Shown: positions 25,458-62,004, numbered from the stretch's first letter. The stretch: 64,000 nt of DNA from Promethearchaeota archaeon (GCA_019058365.1 JAHPZE010000004.1:160001-224000); one strand, 5' to 3'. Notes: generated by a model not told the origin, from the letters alone. Numbers and translations are program-made.

Positions 25458-26786
25458 TTAGTAAAACTTCAAATATTCATATGCTTTGTTTGGAGCCTGA
25501 AAACAATATTTTATTTCTTGGAAACCCTGTCTAAATTCAGCCACGTCATTTCTTATCTTTTTAGGGTCCTTTTTTTCAATTAGTAGTTTTTTAAAGAAAT
25601 CAGCAATATCAACCATTTCATTTTTTTTCATACCAAGTCGAGTTATTTCAGAGGTCCCGATTCTCAAACCGCCTGGATTTTGGTAATGTCTACCTTCAGC
25701 GATGTCATTAGGCAAAAGATTACGATTGAGGATTATGTTAGCATCTTCTAGAATTTTCTCAATGTCTCCACCCAATCCAATAGTTTTTTCAAATGCAGTA
25801 ATATCAACCACAATCTGATGAGATTCAGTAAATCCTTTATGTTCCATTAATACTTTCAAACCAATATCAGATAAAGCTTGTCCAAGAGCTTTGGCATTTT
25901 TAATAACATTTTTATGGTATTCCTTTCCAAATTCTAGCATTTCTGCTAAAGCAATACCCAATCCAGCAACATTGTGTAGATGATGATTAGATAATAAAGC
26001 CGGAAACGCACAAGATCTCAATGTTTCAACTAAATCTTCTCTATTCGATACTAATATACCATGTTGAGGTCCTGGAAGTGTTTTATGTGTACTCATCGTC
26101 ATAGCGTCTGCTCCTTCTCTTAAAGGATCTTGAAAATACCCAGAACCAATCAATCCAGCAACATGGGCAGCATCATAACCAATATATGCCCCCACTTCTT
26201 TCGCAACTTCACCAAGTTCTTTAACGGGGTGTGGGAATAAAAATACTGAACCACCAAATAAAACTAATTCAGGCTCGAATTCTCTTATAATTTTTGCAGA
26301 AGCATCAATATCTAAGTTCATTTCATCATTATCAAAAGCTAAATATTCTACATTTATTCCTCTAGTTGTACCAGCTGTACCAAAAATTTCTCTACCACTT
26401 TTTGCGAATCTTGGTCCATGTGAAATATGACCACCACGAACAATAGACATACAACACATCTTACCATTATTATCTGAAGTAAATGCATTATACATAACTA
26501 AGTTTGCTACAACTCCAGATACTGGTCGTACATCAGCATGTAAGCAATCAAAATATTCTTTTGTAAGTTCCATGCAAATATCTTCTATTTGATCTATATA
26601 AGTGCACCCAGCATAAACTCTCTGGCCGCTCCAGCCTTCTGCATATCGATGTGAAAAATCAGAAACACAGGCTTCATCCACAGCGGGACTGGTAATATTT
26701 TCAGAAGCGATTAGAGGAATGGATTTTTGGAACCAATCATGATGCTCTTGTAAAAGAGTTCTGATTTCAGCTACTTTTTTCTTCAA
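25458..26786 (-). CDS. glyA: Serine hydroxymethyltransferase (archaeal type)
   Basis: LIASEN, RYAEG, GGHISH, YDAAHV, STHKTLPGPQ, GLRIGT. Confidence 0.96.
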   Translation of the reverse strand: MKKKVAEIRTLLQEHHDWFQKSIPLIASENITSPAVDEACVSDFSHRYAEGWSGQRVYAGCTYIDQIEDICMELTKEYFDCLHADVRPVSGVVANLVMYNAFTSDNNGKMCCMSIVRGGHISHGPRFAKSGREIFGTAGTTRGINVEYLAFDNDEMNLDIDASAKIIREFEPELVLFGGSVFLFPHPVKELGEVAKEVGAYIGYDAAHVAGLIGSGYFQDPLREGADAMTMSTHKTLPGPQHGILVSNREDLVETLRSCAFPALLSNHHLHNVAGLGIALAEMLEFGKEYHKNVIKNAKALGQALSDIGLKVLMEHKGFTESHQIVVDITAFEKTIGLGGDIEKILEDANIILNRNLLPNDIAEGRHYQNPGGLRIGTSEITRLGMKKNEMVDIADFFKKLLIEKKDPKKIRNDVAEFRQGFQEIKYCFQAPNKAYEYLKFY

Positions 26787-39401: not shown

Positions 39402-40541
39402 TCAAATTACTTTTCTTACTTCAAAATTTTCAGCTCTTTTTATTTTTTTTTTACTAAAACTAATAACCTGCGCTAAAATTTTTGATTTTTCTACTGAAGT
39501 ATTTAATTCATTTGGTTCAAAAATATATCCTTTATTTTGAGCGAGATTATAGATTTTTTCTCCTGTTTTTGTTCTAATCATAACTGTTGTATAACCAGTT
39601 TGAGAACCCAAACCTCCAAAAGAAATATCAGCAAAATAATTCGAAAAATTTTCACAAACTCTGCACGCGTGTCTCATAATGTCTCTAAGGTCAGAAAATT
39701 CGATTCTTAAAGGATTTTCTTTATTTCTTAGATTAATTATCAAATTGTTTTTAATATTTATCTTCTCAATGTCCTTAAAAGAAAAGTTGAACCTCTCTTC
39801 AATTCTCGCTCTAGCAACATCATCAAATTTAAAATTCTCGTAACAAAATAAACCTAAAGTATACTTAACAATATGAGCAGGAATAATATTTAGTTCTTGC
39901 ATTTTTCTTATGGAGTGAATCTGACAGGGAACTCCAACCACAGCAATTTTCATATAATCTGAATCAGTAACTTTTTTTAATTCAGAAATAGTTGAAACAA
40001 AGGTATTATAATTGCCTAATTCTGGAATAGGACCTTTTAAATCGTAATTTGTACCTGCAGCTTCAAGAATTTCTTCCTTGGTTTTAGCAAAAAAAGGTAT
40101 CCTCTGAAAAGAACTAATTCTTTTTGATATAAGTGCGCCATTTATTAAATTATTATCTAAAAGAGCAATTAAAATAGCTGTCACAATACCTCCATCAGTA
40201 GCTACTTCCCGAATTTTTGGATCTTTTGCTTGAGCTGTTACAATTTTAACCCAATTTCCAATTGGGGGTTTAAAATCGAATCTCTTGTTTAATTCGTTTC
40301 TCAATTCAAAAGTTTCAGGACAAATTAAATAGCATATTCCACAATGTAAACAATTTTCTTTATTAAAATAATGAGGTGGTCCAACTTCTGTCATTTCAAT
40401 TGCTCCAATATCTGCTGCGGTACAAAAACTTACACAACCCCCGCATTCTCCACATATATCTTTTTCATGAATATCTTTAATGAGATCTTCAAAAGATTTA
40501 GGCATGATATCACTCATTTTTAATGTAGGATCTTCAGACAT
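39402..40541 (-). CDS. FrhB/FdhB-family coenzyme F420-binding flavoprotein with 2x4Fe-4S domain
   Basis: CGECGGCVSFC, CLHCGICYLICP, ATDGGIVT, VVGVPCQ, GLFCYENF, ACRVC..ADISFG. Confidence 0.9.
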   Translation of the reverse strand: MSEDPTLKMSDIMPKSFEDLIKDIHEKDICGECGGCVSFCTAADIGAIEMTEVGPPHYFNKENCLHCGICYLICPETFELRNELNKRFDFKPPIGNWVKIVTAQAKDPKIREVATDGGIVTAILIALLDNNLINGALISKRISSFQRIPFFAKTKEEILEAAGTNYDLKGPIPELGNYNTFVSTISELKKVTDSDYMKIAVVGVPCQIHSIRKMQELNIIPAHIVKYTLGLFCYENFKFDDVARARIEERFNFSFKDIEKINIKNNLIINLRNKENPLRIEFSDLRDIMRHACRVCENFSNYFADISFGGLGSQTGYTTVMIRTKTGEKIYNLAQNKGYIFEPNELNTSVEKSKILAQVISFSKKKIKRAENFEVRKVI

Positions 40542-40847
40542 ACAAATTTACCTTTTCTTTTCTTTCAAAAGTTAATTAATAATTCTATAATATTTTCCAA
40601 CATTATAATTTTTGTTAATAAAAATATATCAAAATGACTTAAATCGTATATTTTTTACTATATAAATATAGGAATTTGAACTATATTTCCCGATTCAATA
40701 ATTTTATATCAAAAATTATTTTTGTAAAAAATAACAAGTTTTTACAATATTTTGAATTAATATTCAAAATTGATAATTTTAAAAGTTAAAAAATTTATAA
40801 ATTAATACTTTTTTCTTACTAATTTTTCAAAAAGATAAATGAAAATG

Positions 40848-40916
40848 TCGGAAATTTTAAAAAATGTTATATATTTCCGAAACCGTATAAAATCTTTAAA
40901 TACGAAGATCGATCTT
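40848..40916. promoter_or_regulatory. Putative operator/promoter of the hdr-metVF operon
   Basis: Inverted repeat TCGGAAAT-N17-ATTTCCGA (40848-40880), TATA-like CTTTAAATA (40894-40902), perfect palindrome AAGATCGATCTT (40905-40916). Confidence 0.5.
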
Positions 40917-41049
40917 AATTATAATATTGGAAAAAATTATTGTAATCCTTAAAAATATAATAAATATATTATTAAAAATATCAATATTAATAAAATAGAT
41001 AATTAGTTTCTAAAACATAATATATTAATTAGCTTATGGGGTATAAATT

Positions 41050-41556
41050 ATGCAAATGGTTGATTTTGAATTTCGAAATGAGTTGATAAAGGAAGATTTC
41101 TCATTAAATTATTGTTATCAATGTGGAACTTGTTCCAGCTCATGTCCAGTAGCTTTTGTTACTCAAGGTGAATATAATCCTCGAAAAATTATCGAACAAT
41201 CACTTTTAGGGCTTAAAGATATGCTATTAAAAGACCAAAAACCTAATGTATGGTTATGTTGTACGTGTCAGATGTGCGTAGAAGAATGCCCCCAAAAGGT
41301 TTTTTTAACGGAAATTTTTGAGAGGATTAAAAATAAGATTGTATTATTAGGAGAACCTTACCCTGAGAATTTTAAAATACAAGCAAAAAGCGTAATACAA
41401 AATGGATTAGCAATTCCTCTAACACAACCAATTATTCGTAGAAGAGAACAATTGGGACTTCCGAATATAGAATCTGCTAATATTAAAGAATTAAAAAAAT
41501 TGTTAGATGCTACTGATTTTGAAAAAAAAATAAAAGTGTTTGAGGTAAGTAAATAA
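41050..41556 (+). CDS. hdrC: Heterodisulfide reductase subunit C
   Basis: CYQCGTCSSSCP, NPRKII, WLCCTCQMCVEECPQ. Confidence 0.93.
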   Translation: MQMVDFEFRNELIKEDFSLNYCYQCGTCSSSCPVAFVTQGEYNPRKIIEQSLLGLKDMLLKDQKPNVWLCCTCQMCVEECPQKVFLTEIFERIKNKIVLLGEPYPENFKIQAKSVIQNGLAIPLTQPIIRRREQLGLPNIESANIKELKKLLDATDFEKKIKVFEVSK

Positions 41557-41557
41557 A

Positions 41558-42427
41558 ATGTCTTATAGTTACTTTTTAGGTTGTGTAATTCCTGGAAGAC
41601 TACCATTTTTAGAAGCATCAGCGCGAAACACATTTGAAAAAATTGGTTTGAAAGTTGGAGATCAAGCCAAATGTTCATGTTGTCCAGATCCTACTGGGGC
41701 AGCTCAATTGGATCATGAAACATTCTTAGCTTTAGGAGCAAGAAATTTATGTCTTTTTGAAGAAAGTAATAAAAGTATATTAAGTCTCTGTTCTGGATGT
41801 ACAGAATCTCTCAAAACAGTTAAACATATATTAGATAATGATGATGAGAAGAAAAAAGAAATTAATTTGAAATTAAAGGTAATAGGAAAAGCCTATAAAG
41901 GAAGTATTGATATTAAACATTTTGCTGAAGTATTATATGAAAATATTGAAAAAATTAAACAAAAGGTTAAAAAACCATTAAAAGATCTAAAAGTTGCGGG
42001 TCACCCTGGATGTCATTATTTACGTCCATCTGAAATAATAAATTGGGATGATCCATTGAATCCTAAAACCTTAGATGAATTAATTGAAGCAACTGGAGCA
42101 GATCCTGTTGAATATAGTTTGAAAAATGATTGTTGTGGAAACCCAGTAGAAAAATCTGATAAGGACATTTCTCTAAGGATGTTAGAGAACAAACTTAAAA
42201 GCATGAAAGAAGCAGGAACAGATTGTATTGCGTGTGTTTGCCCTGCTTGTTATCAGCAATTTGATTTCAATCAGAGAGAAGTAAATAAAATTTACAATAC
42301 AGATTATAATTTTCCAGTTTTTTATATAACAGAACTCATTGCTTTAGCTATAGGAATGGATACAGAAAAGCTTGGCTTAAATTTCCACAGAATTAAAGTT
42401 AATGATATTTTAAAAAAAATTGCTTAA
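41558..42427 (+). CDS. hdrB: Heterodisulfide reductase subunit B (two CCG domains)
   Basis: YFLGC, CSCCP, CSGC, HPGCHY, DCCG, CVCPACYQQFD. Confidence 0.93.
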   Translation: MSYSYFLGCVIPGRLPFLEASARNTFEKIGLKVGDQAKCSCCPDPTGAAQLDHETFLALGARNLCLFEESNKSILSLCSGCTESLKTVKHILDNDDEKKKEINLKLKVIGKAYKGSIDIKHFAEVLYENIEKIKQKVKKPLKDLKVAGHPGCHYLRPSEIINWDDPLNPKTLDELIEATGADPVEYSLKNDCCGNPVEKSDKDISLRMLENKLKSMKEAGTDCIACVCPACYQQFDFNQREVNKIYNTDYNFPVFYITELIALAIGMDTEKLGLNFHRIKVNDILKKIA

Positions 42428-42447
42428 TATAAAGAAGATGATTTAAG

Positions 42448-43743
42448 TTGGATGAAAATTTAAAAAGAGTTATGGTTATTGGAGGGGGAATCGCAGGAAT
42501 TCAAGCATCTTTAGATTTAGCTGAAAGAGGTATAAAAGTCGAATTGATTGAGAAAAATGCCTGTATCGGAGGACGAATGGCACAACTTGATAAAACATTT
42601 CCTACTAATGACTGTTCTATTTGTATTTTAGCTCCAAAACTCGCAGAATGTTTTCGACATCCAAATATTACTTTGCATACACTTTCAGAAGTAAAAAATC
42701 TATCAGGTCGACCAGGGAATTTCAATGTGAAAATATTCAAGAAAGCAAGATATGTAAAAGCAGAAGAATGTATAAATTGTGGACGATGTATAGAAAAATG
42801 TCCAATGAGGGTAGACGATGAATTTGATATGAAATTAAGAAAACGTAGAGCAATTTATATTGATTATGTTCAAGGTGTTCCCTCAATAATGACTATAGAT
42901 AAAGAAAACTGTTTATTTTTCACAAAGAACGCTTGCAGGATTTGTGAAAAAGTGTGTGAAAGAGAAGCAATCGATTTCGATCAAAAGGATGAAGAAATGG
43001 AATTAAATGTGGGATCTATCATTGTAGCGACAGGTTATGATATATTTGATCCAAAAACTCTCGAATCTTTAGGATATGGTCGATATCCCAATGTTGTTAC
43101 TGCTCTAGAATTTGAAAGATTAATTAGTGCTTCTGGACCGTTGGGAGGACATTTGACGAGGCCATCGGATAAAAATGAGCCTAAAAAACTGGCTTTCATT
43201 AATTGTGTAGGTTCAAGAGATATAAAAAACAATCCATATTGTTCATCTTGTTGTTGTATGTATACCACTAAAGAAGCAATGATAGCTTATGAGCATGATA
43301 ATGAGATAGATACTTCAATATTCTATATTGATCTTAGAGCTGCTGGTAAAGGTTTCCGAGAATATATTCAAAGAGGAGGAGATGAATATGCTATTAAATA
43401 CATTAAAGGAAAGGTAGCGAAGATATTGGAAGATGATCAAAGAAATCCTTTAATTATATTTGAAGATATTAATACTTCGCAAGTGAAACAACTTAAATTT
43501 GACTTAGTAATTTTAGCTACTACTATGATACCTAAAAAAGATGCTGCAGGATTAGCTAAAATCCTTGGAATTAAAATAAATGATTATAACTTTTTCAAAG
43601 CAGAGAATTACCAACCACAAAAATCCTCTAAGGAAGGAATTTTTCTCTGCGGTGCTTGTAGGGAACCAATGGATATTCCAAATTCTGTAATTGATGCAAG
43701 TGGAGCAGCCGCTAAAGCTGCTGAAATTGTAATGAGGGGGTAA
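42448..43743 (+). CDS. hdrA: HdrA-like flavoprotein, module 1 (FAD domain with inserted ferredoxin)
   Basis: IGGGIAG, LDKTFPTNDCSICIL, CINCGRCIEKCP, FERLISASGP, CVGSRD..YCS.CCMY. Confidence 0.9.
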   Translation: MDENLKRVMVIGGGIAGIQASLDLAERGIKVELIEKNACIGGRMAQLDKTFPTNDCSICILAPKLAECFRHPNITLHTLSEVKNLSGRPGNFNVKIFKKARYVKAEECINCGRCIEKCPMRVDDEFDMKLRKRRAIYIDYVQGVPSIMTIDKENCLFFTKNACRICEKVCEREAIDFDQKDEEMELNVGSIIVATGYDIFDPKTLESLGYGRYPNVVTALEFERLISASGPLGGHLTRPSDKNEPKKLAFINCVGSRDIKNNPYCSSCCCMYTTKEAMIAYEHDNEIDTSIFYIDLRAAGKGFREYIQRGGDEYAIKYIKGKVAKILEDDQRNPLIIFEDINTSQVKQLKFDLVILATTMIPKKDAAGLAKILGIKINDYNFFKAENYQPQKSSKEGIFLCGACREPMDIPNSVIDASGAAAKAAEIVMRG

Positions 43744-43747
43744 AAAA

Positions 43748-45415
43748 ATGACGGACGACGATATTAGAATTGGCGTTTTTATTTGTCATTGTGGTACTAA
43801 TATAGGTGGTGTTTTAGATATCTCTGAGTTAACAGAATATACCAAGACTTTACCTAATGTAGTATATAGTGCTGCAAACCTTTATACATGTTCAGAAGTT
43901 GGATTAAGTGAGATCAGAGAAAATATAAAGGAACATAATTTAAATCGTGTTATTGTAGCATCATGTTCTCCTCGAACTCATGAACCATTATTTAGATCAA
44001 CTTGTCAAGAAGCAGGTTTGAATCCTTATTTATTCGAAATGGTAAACATTCGAGATCAAGATTCTTGGGTTCATATGAAAGAGCCAGAAAAAGGTACCGA
44101 AAAGGCTAAAGATCTCATTAGAATGGGTGTTTTTAAGGCTGCTCTATTAGAATCATTAGAAAAAATGCAAGTTAGCGTAATACCTTCTGCTATAGTAATA
44201 GGTGGCGGGATCGCAGGAATGAATGCTGCATTAAATTTAGCAAACCAAAGTTTTAAAGTAAGTGTAATCGAAAAGGATTCTGAATTAGGAGGATTAATTA
44301 GACATTTAAATAAAGTATATCCTACTAATGAAGATGCTTCAAATATATTAGAAACAAGAAATTTGGTAGAGAATCATAAAAAAATTGAGGTATATAAGTC
44401 TGCTGTAATAGAAAAAATAGAAGGATATGTAGGGAACTTTAAAGTAATTATTCTTCAAAATAAAAAAACCATAGAAATTGAAGCAGGAGCTATTATTGTT
44501 GCTACAGGCGCAAAAGCTTTATCACCAGAAGGATACTATAATTATAATGGAAAAACCATAATAAGTCAATTAGAACTTGAAGGTTTATTAAAAGAGAATA
44601 AAATTAACAATTCTAACATTACTATGATTCAATGTGTTGGTTGTAGAAATGAAGAACGAAAATATTGTTCAAATATATGCTGTATGACTGCGCTTAAAAA
44701 TGCAATCTTAATCAAGGAACACAATCCAAATGCTAATATTAATATAATTTTTAGAGATATCCAAACTCAAGGTGTTGCCTATGAGGAATACTATAGAAGA
44801 GCAAGAGAAATGGGAATTTTGTTTATAAAATATTTACCAGAGAAACCTCCAACAATTAAGAAAGACCGTATTGAGGTTTATAATGAATTTATGAATCAAA
44901 TCATTGGATTTCCTTATGATCTTGTTGTATTATCAATGCCTCTTGTTGCTAATGAAGATTCAGAACAGCTAGCTAAAATGTTAAAAGTGCCATTAGAAGA
45001 GAATCATTTCTTTTTAGAAGCTCATGTGAAATTAAGACCTGTTGATTTTGCTACAGACGGTATTTTTGTATGTGGCTCTGCTCATTGGCCAGCGGATATT
45101 TCAGAATCAATATCACAATCAAATGCTGCAGCTTCTAGAGCAAGTACAATAATCTCGAAAGAAATGCTAGAAGTAGAAGGTTCTACAGCCGAAGTTAATA
45201 CAGATTTATGTGTGGGATGTGAAGCGTGTATTAAGATTTGTTCCTATAGTGCAATATCTAAAGATGAGGAAACTGATACTGTCGTAGTTAATAAAGTTGT
45301 TTGTAAAGGGTGTGGAGTATGTGGTGCTAGTTGTCCGCAAAATGCAATAACGATACACCACTTTACTAGCGATCAAATTATTGCTGAAATTGTAACTTAT
45401 GGAGGTGGAGAATAA
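43748..45415 (+). CDS. hdrA: HdrA-like flavoprotein, module 2 (CHC domain, FAD domain, C-terminal ferredoxin)
   Basis: IGVFICHCG, ASCSPRTHE, IGGGIAG, EAHVKLRPV, CVGCEAC, CKGCGVCGASCP. Confidence 0.9.
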   Translation: MTDDDIRIGVFICHCGTNIGGVLDISELTEYTKTLPNVVYSAANLYTCSEVGLSEIRENIKEHNLNRVIVASCSPRTHEPLFRSTCQEAGLNPYLFEMVNIRDQDSWVHMKEPEKGTEKAKDLIRMGVFKAALLESLEKMQVSVIPSAIVIGGGIAGMNAALNLANQSFKVSVIEKDSELGGLIRHLNKVYPTNEDASNILETRNLVENHKKIEVYKSAVIEKIEGYVGNFKVIILQNKKTIEIEAGAIIVATGAKALSPEGYYNYNGKTIISQLELEGLLKENKINNSNITMIQCVGCRNEERKYCSNICCMTALKNAILIKEHNPNANINIIFRDIQTQGVAYEEYYRRAREMGILFIKYLPEKPPTIKKDRIEVYNEFMNQIIGFPYDLVVLSMPLVANEDSEQLAKMLKVPLEENHFFLEAHVKLRPVDFATDGIFVCGSAHWPADISESISQSNAAASRASTIISKEMLEVEGSTAEVNTDLCVGCEACIKICSYSAISKDEETDTVVVNKVVCKGCGVCGASCPQNAITIHHFTSDQIIAEIVTYGGGE

Positions 45416-46186
45416 ATGGTCTTTGAACCTAAAATTTTAGGTTTTTTATGTAATTGGTGCTCTTATGCTGGAGCAGACTTAGCAGGTGTTAGTCGAATCC
45501 AATACCCAACAAATGTCAGAGTTATTCGCGTTATGTGTTCTGGAAGAGTTGATCCAGTATTTATTGTTGAAGCATTTATGAATGGTATTGATGGAGTACT
45601 TGTTTTAGGATGTCATTTAGGAGATTGCCATTATATAAGTGGTAATTATGAAACAGAATTAAAAATGAAAATGTTAAGTAAAACATTATCAATGATAAAT
45701 TTCTCTGATCGAGTTCGACTTGATTGGGTTTCTGCATCAGAAGGAAATAGATTCGCTCAAATAATTGGTGATTTTACTGAACATATCCGTAAATTGGGAC
45801 CATCTCCAATTAAAAATGAGAAAGTAAAGAAAGAAATAATTGATAATCTAAATGCTGTTAAATTTGCCCTATGTGATTCAAGGTTAAGAGCTTTAGTTGC
45901 TAGGCAACGAGAATTAACCACAGATGGAAATGTATATGGGGAAATAATACCGACAGAAGAATTTGAGGAAATACTTGATAATGCTATTGAAAATGAAATT
46001 ATTCGTCATAAAATTTTAGAAAAAATTAAGAACGAAGGTAAGTCTGTCCCTGATATTGCAAAAGAAATTGACGTTGAACCTTATAAAGTATTACAACATA
46101 TTGTAACTCTTCGAGCTCGAGGTTTAGTTGATGTTGATCAAATAAATGAAGAAATTCCCACTTTCATATCGATTAAAGAGGTTTAA
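45416..46186 (+). CDS. mvhD: MvhD/FlpD [2Fe-2S] subunit with C-terminal winged-HTH-like extension
   Basis: FLCNWCSYAGAD, VMCSGRV, GCHLGDCHY, WVSASEG; tail KSVPDIAKEIDVEPYKVLQHIVTLRARGLV. Confidence 0.9.
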   Translation: MVFEPKILGFLCNWCSYAGADLAGVSRIQYPTNVRVIRVMCSGRVDPVFIVEAFMNGIDGVLVLGCHLGDCHYISGNYETELKMKMLSKTLSMINFSDRVRLDWVSASEGNRFAQIIGDFTEHIRKLGPSPIKNEKVKKEIIDNLNAVKFALCDSRLRALVARQRELTTDGNVYGEIIPTEEFEEILDNAIENEIIRHKILEKIKNEGKSVPDIAKEIDVEPYKVLQHIVTLRARGLVDVDQINEEIPTFISIKEV

Positions 46187-46188
46187 AG

Positions 46189-49100
46189 ATGGAAAAAATT
46201 GGGTCAGTTTTAGTAATAGGAGGTGGAATAGCAGGCATCCAAGCTTCAATGGATTTAGCAGATTCAGGCTTTAAAGTTTATTTAATTGAATCATCAATGA
46301 GTATAGGAGGAGTTATGTCTCAATTAGATAAAACTTTTCCTACGAATGACTGTTCTATATGTATTCTCGCTCCTAAATTGGTTGCTGCAGGGCGTCATGA
46401 AAATATTACACTTTTAATAAATACAAATTTGGAAAAAATTGCGGGAAATCCTGGTAATTTTACTGTTGGGTTGAAACAAAACTCTTTATTATTGGATCAA
46501 GAAAAATGTACTGGTTGTGGGGTATGTGCTCAAGAATGTCCTGTAGAAGCTATTGATTTTTTTAATGAGGGGCTCTCAAATAGAGCTGCTATATCTGTTA
46601 AATTTCCACAAGCAGTTCCTTTAGTATTTTCAATTGATCAGGATCTGTGTATCGGATGTGGTTTTTGTAAGGGCGTATGTAAAGCTAAGGCAATTGATTA
46701 TACTCTCGAGGACAAATTTACTACTTTGAATGTTGGAGCTATTATTTTAGCAGTTGGTTTTGATGAATATGACCCTAGTCTTACACAACAATATGGTTAC
46801 AGTAAATATTTGAATGTTGTCACTAGTATTGAATTTGAGCGAATATTAAGTGCAAGTGGTCCCCATTCGGGGCTCATCCTTAGGCCATCTGATGGAATTA
46901 TTCCAAAAAAAATAGCATTTTTGCAGTGTGTTGGTTCAAGAGATAAAAAACATGGTGCAGAATATTGTTCTTCAATCTGTTGTATGTATACCGCTAAAGA
47001 AGCTGTAATTGCGAAAGAACATATGGCAATTATTGAACCTACGATTTTCTCAATGGATGTGAGAGCTGTTGGAAAAGATTTTGATAAATATATTGAACGT
47101 GCTCAAGATGAATATGGCATTAGATATATTAGAAGTAGAATTTCGGATATTAAGGAAATAGTAGAGACAAAAGATCTGATTCTTCATTTTGAGAATGAAG
47201 AGGGAAAAGTAGTTAGTGAGGTTTTTAACTTAGTTGTTTTGGCCGTAGGTGCTTTACCAAATCGGAGTACAAAAGAGTTAGTAAAAAAGCTAAATATTGA
47301 ATTGAATAGTTATGATTTCTGTAAGACAAAGCCATTTTCCCCAGTAGAAACATCCAGAAAAGGAATTTATGTATGTGGTATGATTTCAGAACCTAAAGAT
47401 ATTCCAGAAACAGTTGTAGAGGCAAGTGCGGCAGCAGGTGCTGTAAATATTCTTTTATCTGATGTCAGAAATACTTTAATAACTGAAAAAGAATTACCAA
47501 AAGAAATTGATACAAGTGGAGAACCCCCTCGCATCGGTGTTTTTATATGTCATTGTGGGATTAACATTGGAGGTGTTGTAGATGTTCCTGAAGTTGTTGA
47601 ATATGCAAGTCAATTACCTGATGTAATTTATGCTGAAAGGAATTTATATACATGCTCAGCAGATACTCAAACTAAGATTAAAGAAAAAATTAAAGAACAT
47701 AATCTAAATAGAGTAATTGTTGCTTCATGTACCCCAAGAACTCATGAACCCTTATTTCAAGCAACAATTAGGGAAGCAGGTTTGAATAAATATCTTTTTG
47801 ATTTAGCAAATATCCGGGATCAATGCTCATGGGTACATATGCATGAACCAGAGGAAGCAACAGAGAAAGCAAAGGATCTAGTGAGAATGGCTATTGCTAG
47901 AGCTCGAAAATTAGTCCCTCTCCAAGAACAACAAGTAGAAGTAATACATAAGGGAATGGTAATTGGAGGAGGCGTTGCAGGAATGACAGCAGCTTTAAAC
48001 CTTGCAAATCAAGGATTTGAAGTATTTCTTATAGAAAAAGCTGAAAAATTAGGAGGATTTTCTAATAATATTTATCAAACTATAGAAAATTATGATGTTC
48101 AAGAATTTCTTGAAGATTTAATTAATAAAGTTAATAATCATAAGCTCATTAACGTATTTCTTAATGCTAGAATTAACTCAATAGGTGGTTACGTCTGTAA
48201 CTTTACAACCAAAATTACATGTGGTGAAGATAAACAAAAGAAAGAATTTCAGCACGGTATTATTATTGTAGCTACTGGAGCTCATGAATACCAACCAAAA
48301 AATGGTGAATTTCTTTTTGATAAAGATAATAGAGTTATATTACAATCAGAACTCGAAAAAATTCTTTTCACTGAGGAAGAGAAAATTAATAATTTAAATT
48401 CAATAGTAATGATACAGTGTGTAGGCTCTAGAAATGAAGAGCATCCATATTGTAGTAGGATGTGCTGTAGTGAAGCAATTAAAAATGCTTTAAAGGCAAA
48501 AGAGATTAATCCAAATCTTAATATCACTATTTTATATAGAGATATTCGAACCTATGGCTTTAAAGAAAAATATTACAATTTGGCAAGAGAAAAGGGAATA
48601 CTTTTTCTCAGGTTCAAAGATGATGCACCCCCTGAAATTAAGTTAGAAAATGGTAAATTAGATGTTTATATAGATAAATCAGATATTGGAACTATTAAAA
48701 TAGGAGCAGATTTAATTGCTCTAAGTGCAGGTATTGTCGCTGATGGTGAAGCTAACGAAATTTTAGCAAAAATGTTAAAAGTCCCAACGAATGATGATAA
48801 TTTTTTCTTAGAAGCTCATGTAAAACTTCGACCATCAGATTTCGCAACTGACGGTATCTTTTTATGCGGAACTGCTCGCGGAACTGCAACAATTAGCGAA
48901 AGCATAGGACAGGCAATGTCAGCTGCCTCTAGAGCTACTACAATTTTATCTAAAGATATTTTAATTACTCAAGGTGTCATATCTAAGGTTGATCCCGCTT
49001 TATGCATTGGATGCAATAGATGTGCTGAAGTGTGTAATTATGGTGCAGTTGGTGTAAAATATGAAGAAGGTTTAATGGTTTCTGAAGTTAATCCTCTACT

Positions 49101-49650
49101 TTGTAAAGGTTGTGGAGATTGTGCTGCTGAATGTCCTGCAGAAGCTATTACTATGAGTCATTTTGGACGTATTCAAATTGAACCAATGATAACTGAAGCT
49201 GCAAAAACTTCACTTTCAGATGGACCGCCTAGAATAGTTGCATTTCTCTGCAACTGGTGTAGTTATGCCGGTGCAGATCTAGCTGGAGTAAGTCGATATC
49301 AATATCCTCCAAATATAAGAACTATAAGAGTAATGTGTTCTGGGGGCATCCCTAAGAGTTTTATACTCCAAGCATTTTTAGAAGGTGCTGATGGCGTTTT
49401 TGTAGGTGGATGCCATCTAGGAGATTGTCATTATATAGCCGGAAATCAAGATACTTTAAGAAGAACTAATGAAATTGAACAAATTATAGAATCTCTCGGA
49501 ATCAATCCCGGTAGATTCCTGCGAAGATGGGTTTCTGCTAGTGAAGGAAAGCTTTTTGCTGAAACCATTACAGAATTTACCGAAAAATTAAAAAAATTAG
49601 GTCCTATTGAAAATGACTATAAAAAAGAAGAAATTCTTATAACAAAATAA
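46189..49650 (+). CDS. hdrA: Large HdrA-HdrA-MvhD fusion protein (two FAD domains)
   Basis: Two GGG[IV]AG FAD motifs, internal IGVFICHCG, four ferredoxin motifs, C-terminal FLCNWCSYAGAD MvhD domain. Confidence 0.92.
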   Translation: MEKIGSVLVIGGGIAGIQASMDLADSGFKVYLIESSMSIGGVMSQLDKTFPTNDCSICILAPKLVAAGRHENITLLINTNLEKIAGNPGNFTVGLKQNSLLLDQEKCTGCGVCAQECPVEAIDFFNEGLSNRAAISVKFPQAVPLVFSIDQDLCIGCGFCKGVCKAKAIDYTLEDKFTTLNVGAIILAVGFDEYDPSLTQQYGYSKYLNVVTSIEFERILSASGPHSGLILRPSDGIIPKKIAFLQCVGSRDKKHGAEYCSSICCMYTAKEAVIAKEHMAIIEPTIFSMDVRAVGKDFDKYIERAQDEYGIRYIRSRISDIKEIVETKDLILHFENEEGKVVSEVFNLVVLAVGALPNRSTKELVKKLNIELNSYDFCKTKPFSPVETSRKGIYVCGMISEPKDIPETVVEASAAAGAVNILLSDVRNTLITEKELPKEIDTSGEPPRIGVFICHCGINIGGVVDVPEVVEYASQLPDVIYAERNLYTCSADTQTKIKEKIKEHNLNRVIVASCTPRTHEPLFQATIREAGLNKYLFDLANIRDQCSWVHMHEPEEATEKAKDLVRMAIARARKLVPLQEQQVEVIHKGMVIGGGVAGMTAALNLANQGFEVFLIEKAEKLGGFSNNIYQTIENYDVQEFLEDLINKVNNHKLINVFLNARINSIGGYVCNFTTKITCGEDKQKKEFQHGIIIVATGAHEYQPKNGEFLFDKDNRVILQSELEKILFTEEEKINNLNSIVMIQCVGSRNEEHPYCSRMCCSEAIKNALKAKEINPNLNITILYRDIRTYGFKEKYYNLAREKGILFLRFKDDAPPEIKLENGKLDVYIDKSDIGTIKIGADLIALSAGIVADGEANEILAKMLKVPTNDDNFFLEAHVKLRPSDFATDGIFLCGTARGTATISESIGQAMSAASRATTILSKDILITQGVISKVDPALCIGCNRCAEVCNYGAVGVKYEEGLMVSEVNPLLCKGCGDCAAECPAEAITMSHFGRIQIEPMITEAAKTSLSDGPPRIVAFLCNWCSYAGADLAGVSRYQYPPNIRTIRVMCSGGIPKSFILQAFLEGADGVFVGGCHLGDCHYIAGNQDTLRRTNEIEQIIESLGINPGRFLRRWVSASEGKLFAETITEFTEKLKKLGPIENDYKKEEILITK

Positions 49651-49688
49651 TATAATTATCAAATTAATAAAATTAAGAGTTTTTTAAA

Positions 49689-50387
49689 ATGATTATAACT
49701 AAACAAAAAGGTATTGAAGAAATATATGAAATGATAAAACCATACTCAAAAATCCTAGTCGCTGGGTGTGATGGATGTTGTCAACCTCCACGCTCAATTA
49801 ATGAAGCAAAATTATTGGCACAAATGTTAGAATTGAAAGCAAGGAGTAATGGAAAAGAATTAAAATGGAAAGCTATCACTGTCCTAAGACAGTGTGATGA
49901 TAGAATTGCAGCAACGACAATAAGACCATTTATTGAAGAATTTGATGCAATTGTATCTTTAGCATGTGGTTTAGGTGTCGGAATGTTAAATAGAATCTTT
50001 CCTACAATTCTCACTTTTCCAGCACAAAACAGTATGTTTGGTGGAGCAGAAAATAATGGAGAAAATTATTTTGTTGAGTATTGTGAAACTTGTGGAGAAT
50101 GTCTCCTGGGAGTTACAGGTGGTATTTGTCCGATGGCAGGATGTGCAAAAAACCTGAGTAACGGTCCTTGTGGAGGACAAGTTGAAGGTAAATGTGAAGT
50201 AGGAGGATATACACACGATTGTGCATGGGTCAAAATCTGGGAACGATTGAAGAAATTCAATAGACTTGATTTATTCACAGTTTATAGACCACCACGAAAT
50301 TACCGTATATGGTCGAGTCCAAGATTTTTACATATTTATGAACCAAGTTCAAATGTGGAAGAACCGAAAAAGGAGGAGAAAGTATAA
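49689..50387 (+). CDS. metV: MetV-like Fe-S/Zn subunit of methylenetetrahydrofolate reductase
   Basis: GCDGC, RQCD, LACG.G, CETCGECLL..TGGICP...CAKNL.NGPCGG...GKCEV...DCAW. Confidence 0.9.
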   Translation: MIITKQKGIEEIYEMIKPYSKILVAGCDGCCQPPRSINEAKLLAQMLELKARSNGKELKWKAITVLRQCDDRIAATTIRPFIEEFDAIVSLACGLGVGMLNRIFPTILTFPAQNSMFGGAENNGENYFVEYCETCGECLLGVTGGICPMAGCAKNLSNGPCGGQVEGKCEVGGYTHDCAWVKIWERLKKFNRLDLFTVYRPPRNYRIWSSPRFLHIYEPSSNVEEPKKEEKV

Positions 50388-50388
50388 A

Positions 50389-51327
50389 ATGCCAAAAAGA
50401 CCTGCTTACAGTAATCTAGTAAAGAATATCAAAGAAGGAAAATTCGTATTCACTGGTGAATTAGAACCTGAGAAAGATTTTGATTTAAAACATGTTCTGA
50501 AGTCTGCAGAAGCAATGAAAAAGACTAATAAAATCGTTGCCGCTAATGTTACAGACGGGCCTCAAGGAGATGCTTATACATGTTCCATGGTCCCTTGCTA
50601 TCTAGTTCAAGAAAAAGTTGGATTAGAAGCCATCTGGCAGATGACTGTTCGAGATAGAAATAGAATTGCTCTATTTGGTGATATTTTAGGTGGTGCAATT
50701 CTCGGTCTTAAAAATCTACTTGCATTAACAGGTGATCATTCTGCACTTGGAGATCACCAAAATGCTAGACCTGTTTATGATCTAGATTCTACTCAATTGA
50801 TAGAACTCGTTTCAAAAATGGTTGATGAAGGAACTGATTTAGAAGGAAATGAGATAGTAGGAGGAAAACCGCAAATAAATGTTGGTTGTGCTGCAAATCC
50901 AAATTCAAATCCAAGAGAGCCAGAAATTTTAAAAGTTGGGAGAAAGGTAGAGGTGGGAGCAGATTTCATTCAAACTCAAACTTCATTTGATATTGATGAT
51001 GCTAAGGAGTTTCTAAAGGAATTAGAAAAATATAATACTCCTGTCTTACTTGGGTTATTTCCAATAAAAAGTTATGGAATTGCTGCCTATTTTGATGCAA
51101 ATATTCCAGGTGTGTCAGTTCCTAAAGAATTTCTTGGAGCATTAAAGAAAGCAGAAAAAGATAATAAGGGGAATAAAAATGCTAAATATGCTGCGATAGA
51201 TAAGGTTAATCTGGAGTTCTACAGACCGTTTATTAATGAAATTAAGAAAACTACTAAAGCTGCAGGAATTCATTGTATGGCAGTACATTATGAAAGATTA
51301 TTTGATCCACTCCTTAAAGATTTCTGA
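50389..51327 (+). CDS. metF: MetF-like methylenetetrahydrofolate reductase (FAD TIM barrel)
   Basis: ATG at 50389 just after the metV stop, with GGAGG upstream; FTGELEP, ANVTD, QMTVRDRNR, LALTGDH, GADFIQTQ, AGIHCM. Confidence 0.92.
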   Translation: MPKRPAYSNLVKNIKEGKFVFTGELEPEKDFDLKHVLKSAEAMKKTNKIVAANVTDGPQGDAYTCSMVPCYLVQEKVGLEAIWQMTVRDRNRIALFGDILGGAILGLKNLLALTGDHSALGDHQNARPVYDLDSTQLIELVSKMVDEGTDLEGNEIVGGKPQINVGCAANPNSNPREPEILKVGRKVEVGADFIQTQTSFDIDDAKEFLKELEKYNTPVLLGLFPIKSYGIAAYFDANIPGVSVPKEFLGALKKAEKDNKGNKNAKYAAIDKVNLEFYRPFINEIKKTTKAAGIHCMAVHYERLFDPLLKDF

Positions 51328-51415
51328 AATAAGAACATAAATTTAAAGAATAATTTTTTCGAAATTTCAAATTAAGATTTTTTTAAATATTAAAAAAGAG
51401 AAGAGGGAATTAATA

Positions 51416-51886
51416 ATGAAAAATTTAGATGATAAGGATAAGAGAATCCTTGAAATGCTTCTTGCGGATTCTAGAAGACCATATCATGAAATAGCGGCAG
51501 ATCCAAAGGTAGAATTATCTGAATCGACTGTAAGAAAACGTGTTATCAAACTGCAAGAAGAAGGGGTAATTGAAAAGTTTACTATACAGATCTGCCGTGA
51601 AGATGAAAGATGCATTATTGCATTCATTACACTTATTCCAAAAAGTTTAGCTGAGACAAAAGAATTATTAAGAGAAGCCCAAATCCTACCTCAATGTGAG
51701 GAAGTTTATTTTCTTGCGGGAGAATGTGGTGTTTTGATAAAAGTCAATGTACCTGAAATAATTGAGCTAGATGCGTTAATAGAATCATTCCGTGCTCGTG
51801 CTGATGTAAAAAGTGTTGAGAGAGTATGTGTAGTTTTAAGACCAATAAAAACCCTTCAACAACAATCGGAAGTTCGAGTTTTATAA
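51416..51886 (+). CDS. Lrp/AsnC family regulator (Cys-rich effector domain)
   Basis: LDDKDKRILEML..DSRRPY..IA..LSESTVRKRV HTH; five Cys in the C-terminal part. Confidence 0.9.
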   Translation: MKNLDDKDKRILEMLLADSRRPYHEIAADPKVELSESTVRKRVIKLQEEGVIEKFTIQICREDERCIIAFITLIPKSLAETKELLREAQILPQCEEVYFLAGECGVLIKVNVPEIIELDALIESFRARADVKSVERVCVVLRPIKTLQQQSEVRVL

Positions 51887-60383: not shown

Positions 60384-61064
60384 GTGAAAAAAATGGTTGT
60401 TATAACAACTAAAAAGCCTGTAGAGGAAGTTCTTAATGTCCTGAAAGATAATAATGCTAAAAAGTTGTTTATTGTAAGTTGTGGGGTTTGTTCAGCATTA
60501 TGTCAAACAGGTGGTGAACAAGGCTTAGAGGAATGGAAAGAAATCTTAGAGAAAGAAGGATATGAGATAGTTAATGGCATGGTTGTAGATGATGTCTGTG
60601 ATAATAGAGAAATGGCTAAAGTTGTACGCAAAAATGATGCGGATGTTCAAGAAGCTGATTCTATTGTCACCTTAAGTTGTGGACTTGGAGTTCAATCTAC
60701 AGTTCAGGTGCTTTCTAAGAAATATCCTGAAAAGCAAGTGTTTGTTACAAATAATACAGAATTTATGGGTATGACAGAGAGAATCGGCAGATTTTATATG
60801 CGATGTCGAGGATGTGGTGATTGTCTATTAAATGAAACAGGTGGTATTTGTCCCATTACCACATGTGCAAAATCGCTTATGAATGGACCATGTGGAGGAA
60901 TGGTTAAAGGCAAATGTGAGGTTGGTAATTACGAGAAAGATTGTGGCTGGGTATTAATTTATAATCGATTGAAAGAGATAGGGAGATTAGATTTATTTTC
61001 CAAATTGAGAGATCCCGTAGATTGGAGTGAATCTGGACACCAACGTGAAGTAGTATGGAGGTAG
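60384..61064 (+). CDS. metV: Second MetV-like subunit
   Basis: SCGVC..LC.TGG, LSCGLG, CRGCGDCLLNETGGICPITTCAKSLMNGPCGG; start may be the ATG at 60393. Confidence 0.9.
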   Translation: MKKMVVITTKKPVEEVLNVLKDNNAKKLFIVSCGVCSALCQTGGEQGLEEWKEILEKEGYEIVNGMVVDDVCDNREMAKVVRKNDADVQEADSIVTLSCGLGVQSTVQVLSKKYPEKQVFVTNNTEFMGMTERIGRFYMRCRGCGDCLLNETGGICPITTCAKSLMNGPCGGMVKGKCEVGNYEKDCGWVLIYNRLKEIGRLDLFSKLRDPVDWSESGHQREVVWR

Positions 61065-61071
61065 AATCAAA

Positions 61072-62004
61072 ATGGCAGAAAAAAAAGTATTTTCTAAATT
61101 AGGTGAAAAGTTAGCAAATGGGGAATTTATACTAACAGGCGAGCTAGAGCCTGAAAAAACTTGTGATCTTTCACATACAATCCAAGAAGCTAAAGAAATG
61201 GCTCCATACGTTGTTGCTGCCAATGTTACTGATAGTCCACTTGGAATAGTAACAATTAATAGTATGGCTGCCTCTCATATTATTCAAAAAGAAGCTGAGT
61301 TGGAAGTGATTTGGCAACTTACAGTAAGAGACGTGAATAAATTAGGTATAGCTGGAATGATAATGGGGGGTCATGCATTAGGATTGAGAAATGTTTTATC
61401 TCTTACTGGGGATCATCCTGCCCTTGGAGATATGCCTGAATCTAAACCTGTATTTGATCTTGATTCAGCGACTCTAGTTAAATTAATACGAGAGATGGTT
61501 GATAAGGGAAAAATAAATGGTCATGAAATTGAACATCCTCCAACTCTTCATGTAGGAGCCGCTGCAAATCCAAACGCAGATCCTATGGGAGCTGAGATTT
61601 TAAAAATTGGAAGAAAAGCCGAAGCAGGCTGTGAATTTATACAAACTCAAGTTGTTTACGATTTGGACAGAACTATTGAATTTTTAAGTGAGATCAAAAA
61701 GTATAACGTTCCAGTTTTACTTGGAATTTTTCCAATGAAAAGCTATGGTATTGCCAAGGGTTTTGATACTTTTGTTCCTGGAGTTGATGTTCCAAAGGAC
61801 ATTTTAGCCAAATGGAAAAACATCAAAACAGAGTTTAAGGATGATAAAAAGGAACAGAATAGATTATATGATCAGGCTAATTATGAGTTTTTCAAGCCCT
61901 TTATTTCCGAACTAAAGAGAAAGGGTTTATTAGCGGGCGTACATTGCATGGCTGTTCATTATCCCCGAATCTTTCCTAAATTGATGGAAGTAATTCAAGC
62001 TTAA
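61072..62004 (+). CDS. metF: Second MetF-like methylenetetrahydrofolate reductase
   Basis: TGELEPEK, ANVTDSP, QLTVRD.N, LTGDHP, EFIQTQ, GVHCMAVHY. Confidence 0.92.
   Translation: MAEKKVFSKLGEKLANGEFILTGELEPEKTCDLSHTIQEAKEMAPYVVAANVTDSPLGIVTINSMAASHIIQKEAELEVIWQLTVRDVNKLGIAGMIMGGHALGLRNVLSLTGDHPALGDMPESKPVFDLDSATLVKLIREMVDKGKINGHEIEHPPTLHVGAAANPNADPMGAEILKIGRKAEAGCEFIQTQVVYDLDRTIEFLSEIKKYNVPVLLGIFPMKSYGIAKGFDTFVPGVDVPKDILAKWKNIKTEFKDDKKEQNRLYDQANYEFFKPFISELKRKGLLAGVHCMAVHYPRIFPKLMEVIQA

Follow-up and report, generated by a model that had tools for sequence, protein, structure and literature searches.

An Hdr-MvhD-MetVF operon with an adjoining frhB gene in a Lokiarchaeia genome: a predicted type IV-like methylene-pterin oxidoreductase

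The type IV (Hdr-type) methylenetetrahydrofolate reductases (MTHFRs) of Moorella thermoacetica and Sporomusa ovata are encoded by clusters of six gene types, HdrCBA-MvhD-MetVF (PMC9430772, PMC8760232, PMC13040438), and their electron partners are an open question in the literature (PMC13040438). We analyzed a locus with the same six gene types clustered in a Lokiarchaeia genome, on a stretch of 64,000 nucleotides (Promethearchaeota archaeon, GCA_019058365.1, JAHPZE010000004.1:160001-224000) that is referred to as the window. In this locus, frhB on the minus strand is divergent from the plus-strand operon hdrC-hdrB-hdrA'-hdrA''-mvhD(tail)-hdrAA::mvhD-metV-metF-lrp. Tandem HdrA TrxR domains are present and an MvhD lies beside metV as in the bacterial clusters, whereas the lack of predicted transmembrane segments, the archaeal host with a tetrahydromethanopterin (H4MPT) branch and no Fhs, the two HdrA pseudo-heterodimers and two MvhD proteins, the adjoining F420-type FrhB, and the retention of inserted ferredoxin domains that are missing in bacterial HdrA set the locus apart. 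The HdrA of Moorella has a GltD/NADH domain while the window HdrA proteins do not, and Sporomusa HdrA is also without it (PMC9430772). The operon is not a new enzyme class; it is a gene-content variant of the known type IV MTHFR, and judged by that content it would work like one, its substrate and complex being predicted.

Among archaea, the MetFV-HdrA-MvhD clusters of Ca. Syntrophoarchaeum also place MetVF beside HdrA and MvhD without Mer (PMC9012536, PMC10322722), and the tandem HdrA of ANME and Syntrophoarchaeum, with complementary Cys197 and N-terminal domain, has the same pattern as the HdrA pairs described here (PMC9012536). MetF has been proposed to replace Mer in ANME-1 and Syntrophoarchaeum, whose H4MPT Wood-Ljungdahl branches are without a typical Mer (PMC9012536); a Mer-to-MetF switch is described for ANME-1, and ANME-1-type MetF was reported to branch with Asgard sequences (PMC9012536, PMC10322722). 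The same gap in the H4MPT branch has been published for Loki-3 archaea, with a distant LLM protein proposed as the filler (PMC8027215). The present host resembles those of ANME-1-type MetF in having Mtd, Mch, and Ftr without canonical Mer, and differs from Syntrophoarchaeum and ANME-1 in the absence of Mcr/Acr and in the combination of HdrCB and FrhB in one locus. The locus is also relevant to how the carbon and energy metabolism of Asgard archaea is reconstructed.

FrhB-family proteins are known from related complexes. In Elp-Hdr and Fdh-Hdr of methanogens (PDB 8RVU, 7BKB), an FrhB-family FAD subunit is connected through an MvhD homologue to a bifurcating HdrA, and feeding of HdrA by F420H2 along this path is established for Elp-Hdr (PMC12350162). 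Those complexes are without MetVF and their disulfide is CoM-S-S-CoB, whereas the present locus has no FdhA/ElpA partner and the ferredoxin domain of its FrhB is N-terminal. ACDS zeta and FwdI of Ca. Ethanoperedens thermophilum are plug-in F420 modules with the same order of 2x[4Fe-4S] and F420-reductase domains as the window FrhB, although their partners are CODH and Fwd and their genes lie within the partner operon (PMC11493965). Archaeal HdrA clusters with only an FdhB homologue have already been reported (PMC9012536). A literature search of incomplete coverage found no publication that describes this Asgard operon or that treats FrhB, Hdr, and MetVF in combination.

Our reading of the sequence is that MetVF would be equivalent to Mer and wired via MvhD to HdrA, that FrhB would serve as an F420 port where it is present, and that bifurcation, if any, would run between ferredoxin and the HdrB disulfide. 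For this combination as a whole, the chances appear to be about even; its parts are of different strength and are taken up in turn.

Linkage and history of the operon

The initial annotation had described the gene order and coordinates, gaps of 0-38 bp, the divergent frhB, and the trailing Lrp gene, and all were reproduced from open reading frames identified with Pfam and NCBIfam models. Specifically, the eight co-directional genes from hdrC to metF are separated by 1, 20, 4, 0, 2, 38, and 1 bp, lrp starts 88 bp after metF, and the frhB-hdrC spacer is 508 bp. The annotation had missed the two HdrA pseudo-heterodimers, a second metVF pair in the window, a paralogous hdr-flx-frhB operon, and an MvhAG-like hydrogenase encoded elsewhere in the genome.

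The gene order is conserved among relatives. In 88 of 89 orthologous metF loci, hdr or mvhD lies directly before metV, the exception being at a contig end, and this adjacency indicates that the order is not due to chance. The synteny search thus upholds a type IV-like Hdr-MvhD-MetVF unit as first annotated, and the proposed Asgard origin agrees with the closest MetF relatives, which are encoded in assemblies of Promethearchaeota (Lokiarchaeia), Loki_b31 and Loki_b32 among them. A Bathyarchaeota MetF with 61% identity has no hdr neighbours, and the best bacterial match in a plasmid collection is only 34% identical. The nearest Atlas cluster of MetF is mostly archaeal, most commonly from Bathyarchaeota, in a comparison that contained no ANME-1 sequence.

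The commonest form of the locus is short, hdrAA::mvhD-hdrC-hdrB-metV-metF-lrp, and is without frhB. In a quick MetF tree, made from a homologue search that returned close Asgard relatives only and containing no MetF of acetogens, ANME-1, or Syntrophoarchaeum, the long form represented by the window makes up one clade of 30 rows (SH-aLRT 99) nested among short forms, which indicates that the long form is derived. Its HdrAA did not arise from the short-form HdrAA and groups with two other HdrAA paralogues of the same genome, both in FrhB-containing operons. As judged from this grouping, the frhB-bearing clade has swapped in a new Hdr module.

HdrABC-FlxABCD (Hdr-Flx) is a complex of anaerobic bacteria. 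It has been mentioned for a Lokiarchaeon (10.1101/826495), and a paralogous operon with the same hdr core as the window lies ~70-85 kb upstream on the same contig (L001, G000:C39:114840-128740, minus strand). This operon, hdrCB-frhB-hdrA'-hdrA''-mvhD(tail)-hdrAA-mvhD-flxCBA-frhB, is conserved across the genus and may encode an Hdr-Flx complex of a transhydrogenase-like type acting on F420, NAD(P)H, and ferredoxin. Compared gene by gene, the proteins of the two operons share 57-62% identity, and metVF in the window occupies the position of flxCBA, after the last MvhD. A single simple duplication of the hdr-flx-frhB operon was kept only in part as an explanation, as the fused HdrAA of the window has higher identity (68%) to a third paralogue, which belongs to a different operon that also contains FrhB.

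Gene swaps point to the site at which MetVF docks. The HdrA fusion can be inspected for MvhD motifs in 79 loci; they are retained in 76, and of the remaining three, two continue to match FlpD. By comparison, at least seven loci whose flank could be seen have no hdrB, and frhB is still present in five of them. In two further loci (L073, L075), a 910-residue GltD/NfnB-like NAD(P)-binding protein, fused to the same ferredoxin-MvhD end before metV, stands in place of the Hdr flavin cores and frhB. The loss of hdrB together with the GltD swap suggests that MetVF docks at MvhD and not at HdrCB, and it is quite likely that electrons would leave MetF by way of MetV and enter the fused HdrAA at its ferredoxin-MvhD end. 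Against such a complex, MetVF and Hdr were not stably co-purified even in Sporomusa (PMC9430772). The HdrA-fragment/GltD(NfnB-like)/ferredoxin/MvhD fusions themselves (L073:6545-9277 and L075:6545-9277) mark a candidate NAD(P)H-dependent MetVF. In L025 and L071, the long operon has undergone internal deletions, in which a fragment of hdrC is joined to hdrAA or hdrA'' has recombined with the fused hdrAA; its tandem repeats would lead one to expect such events.

Cofactor motifs, pterin, and energetics

HdrC (41050-41556, plus strand as for all genes of the operon; TIGR03290, E 3e-29) carries 2x[4Fe-4S]. HdrB (41558-42427; PF02754 twice; TIGR03288 at 305 bits against a cut-off of 345) has two intact non-cubane CCG motifs as in methanogen HdrABC, although McrA for CoM-S-S-CoB was not found in the genome (CoM/CoB synthesis genes were not part of the search). 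HdrA' (42448-43743; 431 residues) has a TrxR/FAD core with an inserted ferredoxin and the Cys197 equivalent and is without the N-terminal domain; HdrA'' (43748-45415; 555 residues) has the N-terminal Fe-S domain, a TrxR/FAD core, and a C-terminal ferredoxin and is without Cys197 or the inserted ferredoxin, so that the two complement each other in domain content. The 1153-residue protein (46189-49650) is such an HdrA'-HdrA'' pair, with two FAD modules, fused to MvhD, and each of the two pseudo-heterodimers has its own MvhD. The separate MvhD (45416-46186; PF02662), with intact [2Fe-2S] motifs, is extended by a helical/winged-helix tail of ~120 residues; its predicted model (pLDDT 82.8) matches the fold of MvhD/ElpC, and the MvhD motif sets are intact in both copies.

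Alignment with the solved HdrA indicated that the equivalents of Glu356 and Lys409, which we take to be the flavin-bifurcation residues, are kept in all four HdrA FAD modules, and the adjacent cluster motif (CX12CX3CC-type) is intact in all four. No GltD-type NAD(P)H domain (Fer4_20/GltD insert) was detected in the window HdrA proteins by Pfam and a motif check. MetV (49689-50387; PF12225, E 7.5e-30) is the Fe-S/Zn partner of MetF, rich in cysteine (13 residues), and in MetF (50389-51327; PF02219), the methylene-pterin reductase catalytic subunit, the Glu, Asp116, and Gln motifs align with the active site of Thermus thermophilus MTHFR in the PDB. No transmembrane segment was predicted in the proteins of the locus (no stretch of 19 residues exceeded a hydropathy of 1.8). 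The operon would be expected to encode a soluble type IV-like methylene-pterin oxidoreductase, in which MetF would interconvert methylene- and methyl-pterin and the HdrA flavins would exchange electrons with ferredoxin and, where HdrCB is present, with a disulfide.

The genome encodes Mtd, Mch, Ftr, ACDS beta, and CdhD-family proteins, as well as CofD and CofE of F420 biosynthesis, both above the model cut-off. Mtd is present in 35 of 36 genomes of the genus, Fhs was found neither in this genome nor in any of the 36 (0/36), and canonical Mer occurs in none of 56 genomes of the order, compared with five of five from other orders. This content suggests H4MPT as the pterin, and an H4MPT branch without canonical Mer and without Fhs points to the operon as the filler of the Mer step. 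It is fairly likely that MetF acts on H4MPT, completing the archaeal Wood-Ljungdahl branch of these Lokiarchaeia.

Several observations weigh against this assignment. FolD and FolP are present in the genome and would fit a folate substrate. Two relatives (G059, G060) have both Mer and the Hdr-linked MetVF; the operon is present where Mtd was not found in the incomplete genome G049, and Mtd is present where MetF was not found in the incomplete genome G006. The relatives compared are kin and not independent samples. Moreover, the genome has two Mer-like LLM proteins (158 and 135 bits against the Mer cut-off of 349), and the window has a second, Hdr-free metV2-metF2 pair (60384-62004, plus strand; 38% and 49% identical to metV and metF) that stands outside the operon and, as a rival, could catalyze the same reaction. 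The Mer step might then fall to MetVF2 or to a divergent LLM protein dependent on F420, and the Hdr-linked MetVF would have another role, for example oxidising the methyl groups of methylated substrates or supplying methyl-folate. LLM matches at E <= 1e-40 do occur in 24 of 36 genus genomes, in line with the distant mer candidate of Loki-3 (PMC8027215), and the MetVF2 type is widespread in Asgard genomes; the LLM scores are, however, less than half the Mer cut-off, a third of the genus has no such match, and the 9-kb Fe-S/flavin module suggests a catabolic role, so that we regard this explanation, which could also account for G059 and G060, as very improbable. Stand-alone metVF is divergent from the Hdr-linked operon in L128, L130, and L132. 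In Mer-containing relatives, metVF was observed beside tandem mer genes (L051, G057:C247) and within ~8 kb of mer (L046, G060:C3).

The energetics were computed with potentials of -325 mV for methylene-H4MPT and -450 to -500 mV for ferredoxin. With -340 mV for F420 (PMC9012536) and -200 mV for methylene-tetrahydrofolate (methylene-H4F; PMC9430772), F420H2 bifurcation to methylene-H4F and ferredoxin amounts to -5.8 to +3.9 kJ per 4 electrons, and that to methylene-H4MPT and ferredoxin to +18 to +28 kJ per 4 electrons. The latter value means that an energy-conserving F420H2/ferredoxin scheme needs folate, whereas the genome indicates H4MPT. A scheme of this kind, in which F420H2 drives flavin bifurcation to methylene-pterin at high potential and ferredoxin at low potential with H4F as the C1 carrier, would run near equilibrium and would fit the intact bifurcation signatures, the presence of FolD and FolP, and the retention of frhB, HdrA, and metVF in hdrCB-less loci. 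Nevertheless, the lack of Fhs across the genus leaves no catabolic folate branch, archaeal ACDS and H4MPT enzymes are present, the H4MPT version is endergonic, and the second acceptor in Moorella was not ferredoxin (PMC13040438); we consider it unlikely. The coupling of Hdr flavin bifurcation to pterin conversion that was first proposed is therefore retained for the signature residues but not for F420H2 bifurcation with H4MPT.

For the Mer-equivalent MetVF that we prefer, the simplest net reaction with H4MPT would be near-equilibrium and Mer-like: F420H2 + methylene-H4MPT -> F420 + methyl-H4MPT. If bifurcation is used, electrons of F420H2 or methyl-H4MPT would be split between ferredoxin and the HdrB disulfide, which by calculation is feasible only for a disulfide near -140 to -200 mV.

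FrhB and the hydride-carrier inlet

The frhB gene (39402-40541, minus strand; PF04422/PF04432) encodes an N-terminal 2x[4Fe-4S] ferredoxin followed by an FAD/[4Fe-4S] FrhB domain according to Pfam, and its motifs (FAD-binding GGxVT, four-Cys clusters, and N-terminal 2x[4Fe-4S]) are intact. The protein is below the equivalog cut-offs of FrhB and FpoF (TIGR03289, 157 against 331.5), and its best PDB matches are 8RJA_E and 8RIU_B, presumably FwdI and ACDS zeta of Ca. Ethanoperedens. It is predicted to be an FrhB-family F420 module of the zeta/FwdI/FpoF type with F420 activity. As first noted, no hydrogenase or formate dehydrogenase gene is in the window: neither a NiFe-hydrogenase large subunit nor a molybdopterin catalytic subunit was found there, and all matches in the genome are on other contigs. 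Assignment of FrhB to an Frh or Fdh complex encoded elsewhere was rejected, since no FrhA or FdhA equivalog is above the cut-off in the genome or the locus, which supports the initial interpretation; the NiFe subunits of the genome are closest to VhuA or sulfhydrogenase models.

In the long-form clade, 16 loci have frhB beside the operon and nine are without it, while five could not be resolved. The orthologue occurs in the genus only at this locus wherever contigs permit a check, and no orthologue was found elsewhere in the genus genomes that lost it here. The FrhB tree follows the MetF tree, with the FrhB that ends the hdr-flx operon as sister (support 88), and a ratio of nonsynonymous to synonymous substitutions of 0.12-0.14 indicates purifying selection. 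In L128 and L130, an FrhB gene from another clade overlaps or directly adjoins hdrAA where the short operon begins, while the sister locus L132 has none. With the GltD replacement described above, the hydride-carrier inlet is probably interchangeable across species, F420 entering by FrhB or NAD(P)H by GltD.

The case for an F420 port is weakened by the following points. Of the 25 loci of its own clade that could be resolved, nine are without the gene, as are all 47 short-type loci whose flank was seen; the ancestral short operon did not have it, and it is divergent and outside the operon proper. The genome has nine FrhB-domain proteins, most of them beside hdrA genes, so that proximity to Hdr need not mean proximity to MetVF. 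Accordingly, frhB might be a passenger from the duplicated Hdr module that serves another Hdr complex or acts alone, with MetVF fed by ferredoxin or by donors in trans (MvhAG, Flx). The divergent orientation, repeated loss, and an ancestral operon without a donor gene would be explained in this way. The genome also encodes, away from the locus, FlxCBA and an MvhAG-like hydrogenase that might bind MvhD in trans, and reduced ferredoxin was used by MetVF in vitro (PMC9430772). We nonetheless think a passenger improbable, given that the orthologue is under purifying selection and never found away from the locus and that the same site has separately acquired a further FrhB and an NAD(P)H module. 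Of the F420H2 entry via FrhB that was originally suggested, the intact motifs, the selection, and the F420 biosynthesis genes survive scrutiny; a general link does not, as frhB is an optional gene of one derived clade whereas metVF is linked to hdr almost throughout.

The tail of the separate MvhD hints at a docking site for FrhB. By hhalign (96.3%, E 1.5e-9), the 120-residue tail shares homology with the N-termini of FrhB proteins other than the one analyzed here, which follow hdrA-mvhD elsewhere in the genome, and FlpD-tail-ferredoxin-FrhB fusions occur in relatives. On the other hand, the MvhD part of these fusions has lost its cysteines, the tail is retained at loci that have lost frhB, and MvhD proteins with such a tail are common in Thermodesulfobacteriota. 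Among longer proteins, a search for the tail returned only HdrA-MvhD-tail fusions, and the score of 0.01 for a predicted complex of the tailed MvhD and FrhB counts neither for nor against binding. We slightly favor FrhB as an optional F420 port that would dock at the second MvhD through this tail. In L187 (1492-3357) and L188 (1492-3363), both on the minus strand, a cysteine-less MvhD fold, the tail, a ferredoxin, and FrhB are joined in one protein, encoded divergently from another FrhB gene.

A soluble supercomplex, in which FrhB would sit on the tailed MvhD and MetVF on the fused one of the double HdrA heterodimer, is a less likely extension of this arrangement; methyl/methylene-H4MPT interconversion would then be wired to F420, ferredoxin, and a disulfide via bifurcating flavins. 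If true, the type IV methylene-pterin reductases would gain a first member that uses F420 as hydride carrier, and the Mer step that Loki-3 archaea lack would be accounted for, with the inlet exchanged between F420 and NAD(P)H from species to species. The naturally occurring variants, which differ in the presence of FrhB and of HdrCB and in some cases have an NAD(P)H module in place of Hdr, form a series for addressing MetVF docking, pterin, and carriers.

Other features of the window and genome

A TATA-box-like element (40895-40902, plus strand) ~150 bp upstream of hdrC is a putative promoter of the operon, and upstream alignments showed it to be conserved in long-type loci both with and without frhB. 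A palindrome in the frhB-hdrC spacer was found only in the three closest genomes and is not claimed as an operator. The lrp gene (51416-51886, plus strand; Lrp/AsnC regulator by Pfam) is kept after metF in most family members. A serine hydroxymethyltransferase gene (25458-26786, minus strand) is a possible source of methylene-pterin.

An 850-residue FrhB-GltD fusion (L182:1660-4212) is a candidate F420:NAD(P) transhydrogenase, and similar long frames occur in several genus genomes. The genome contains 25 HdrA-matching open reading frames, some of which are pieces of TGA-split genes. In particular, the hdrA genes at G000:C9:88742-92755 and G000:C16:431909-435960 have in-frame TGA at cysteine positions, likely encoding selenocysteine, and each is followed by a tail-FrhB gene. 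The mvhD on C9 also has an in-frame TGA, while hdrA and mvhD of the window use cysteine only.

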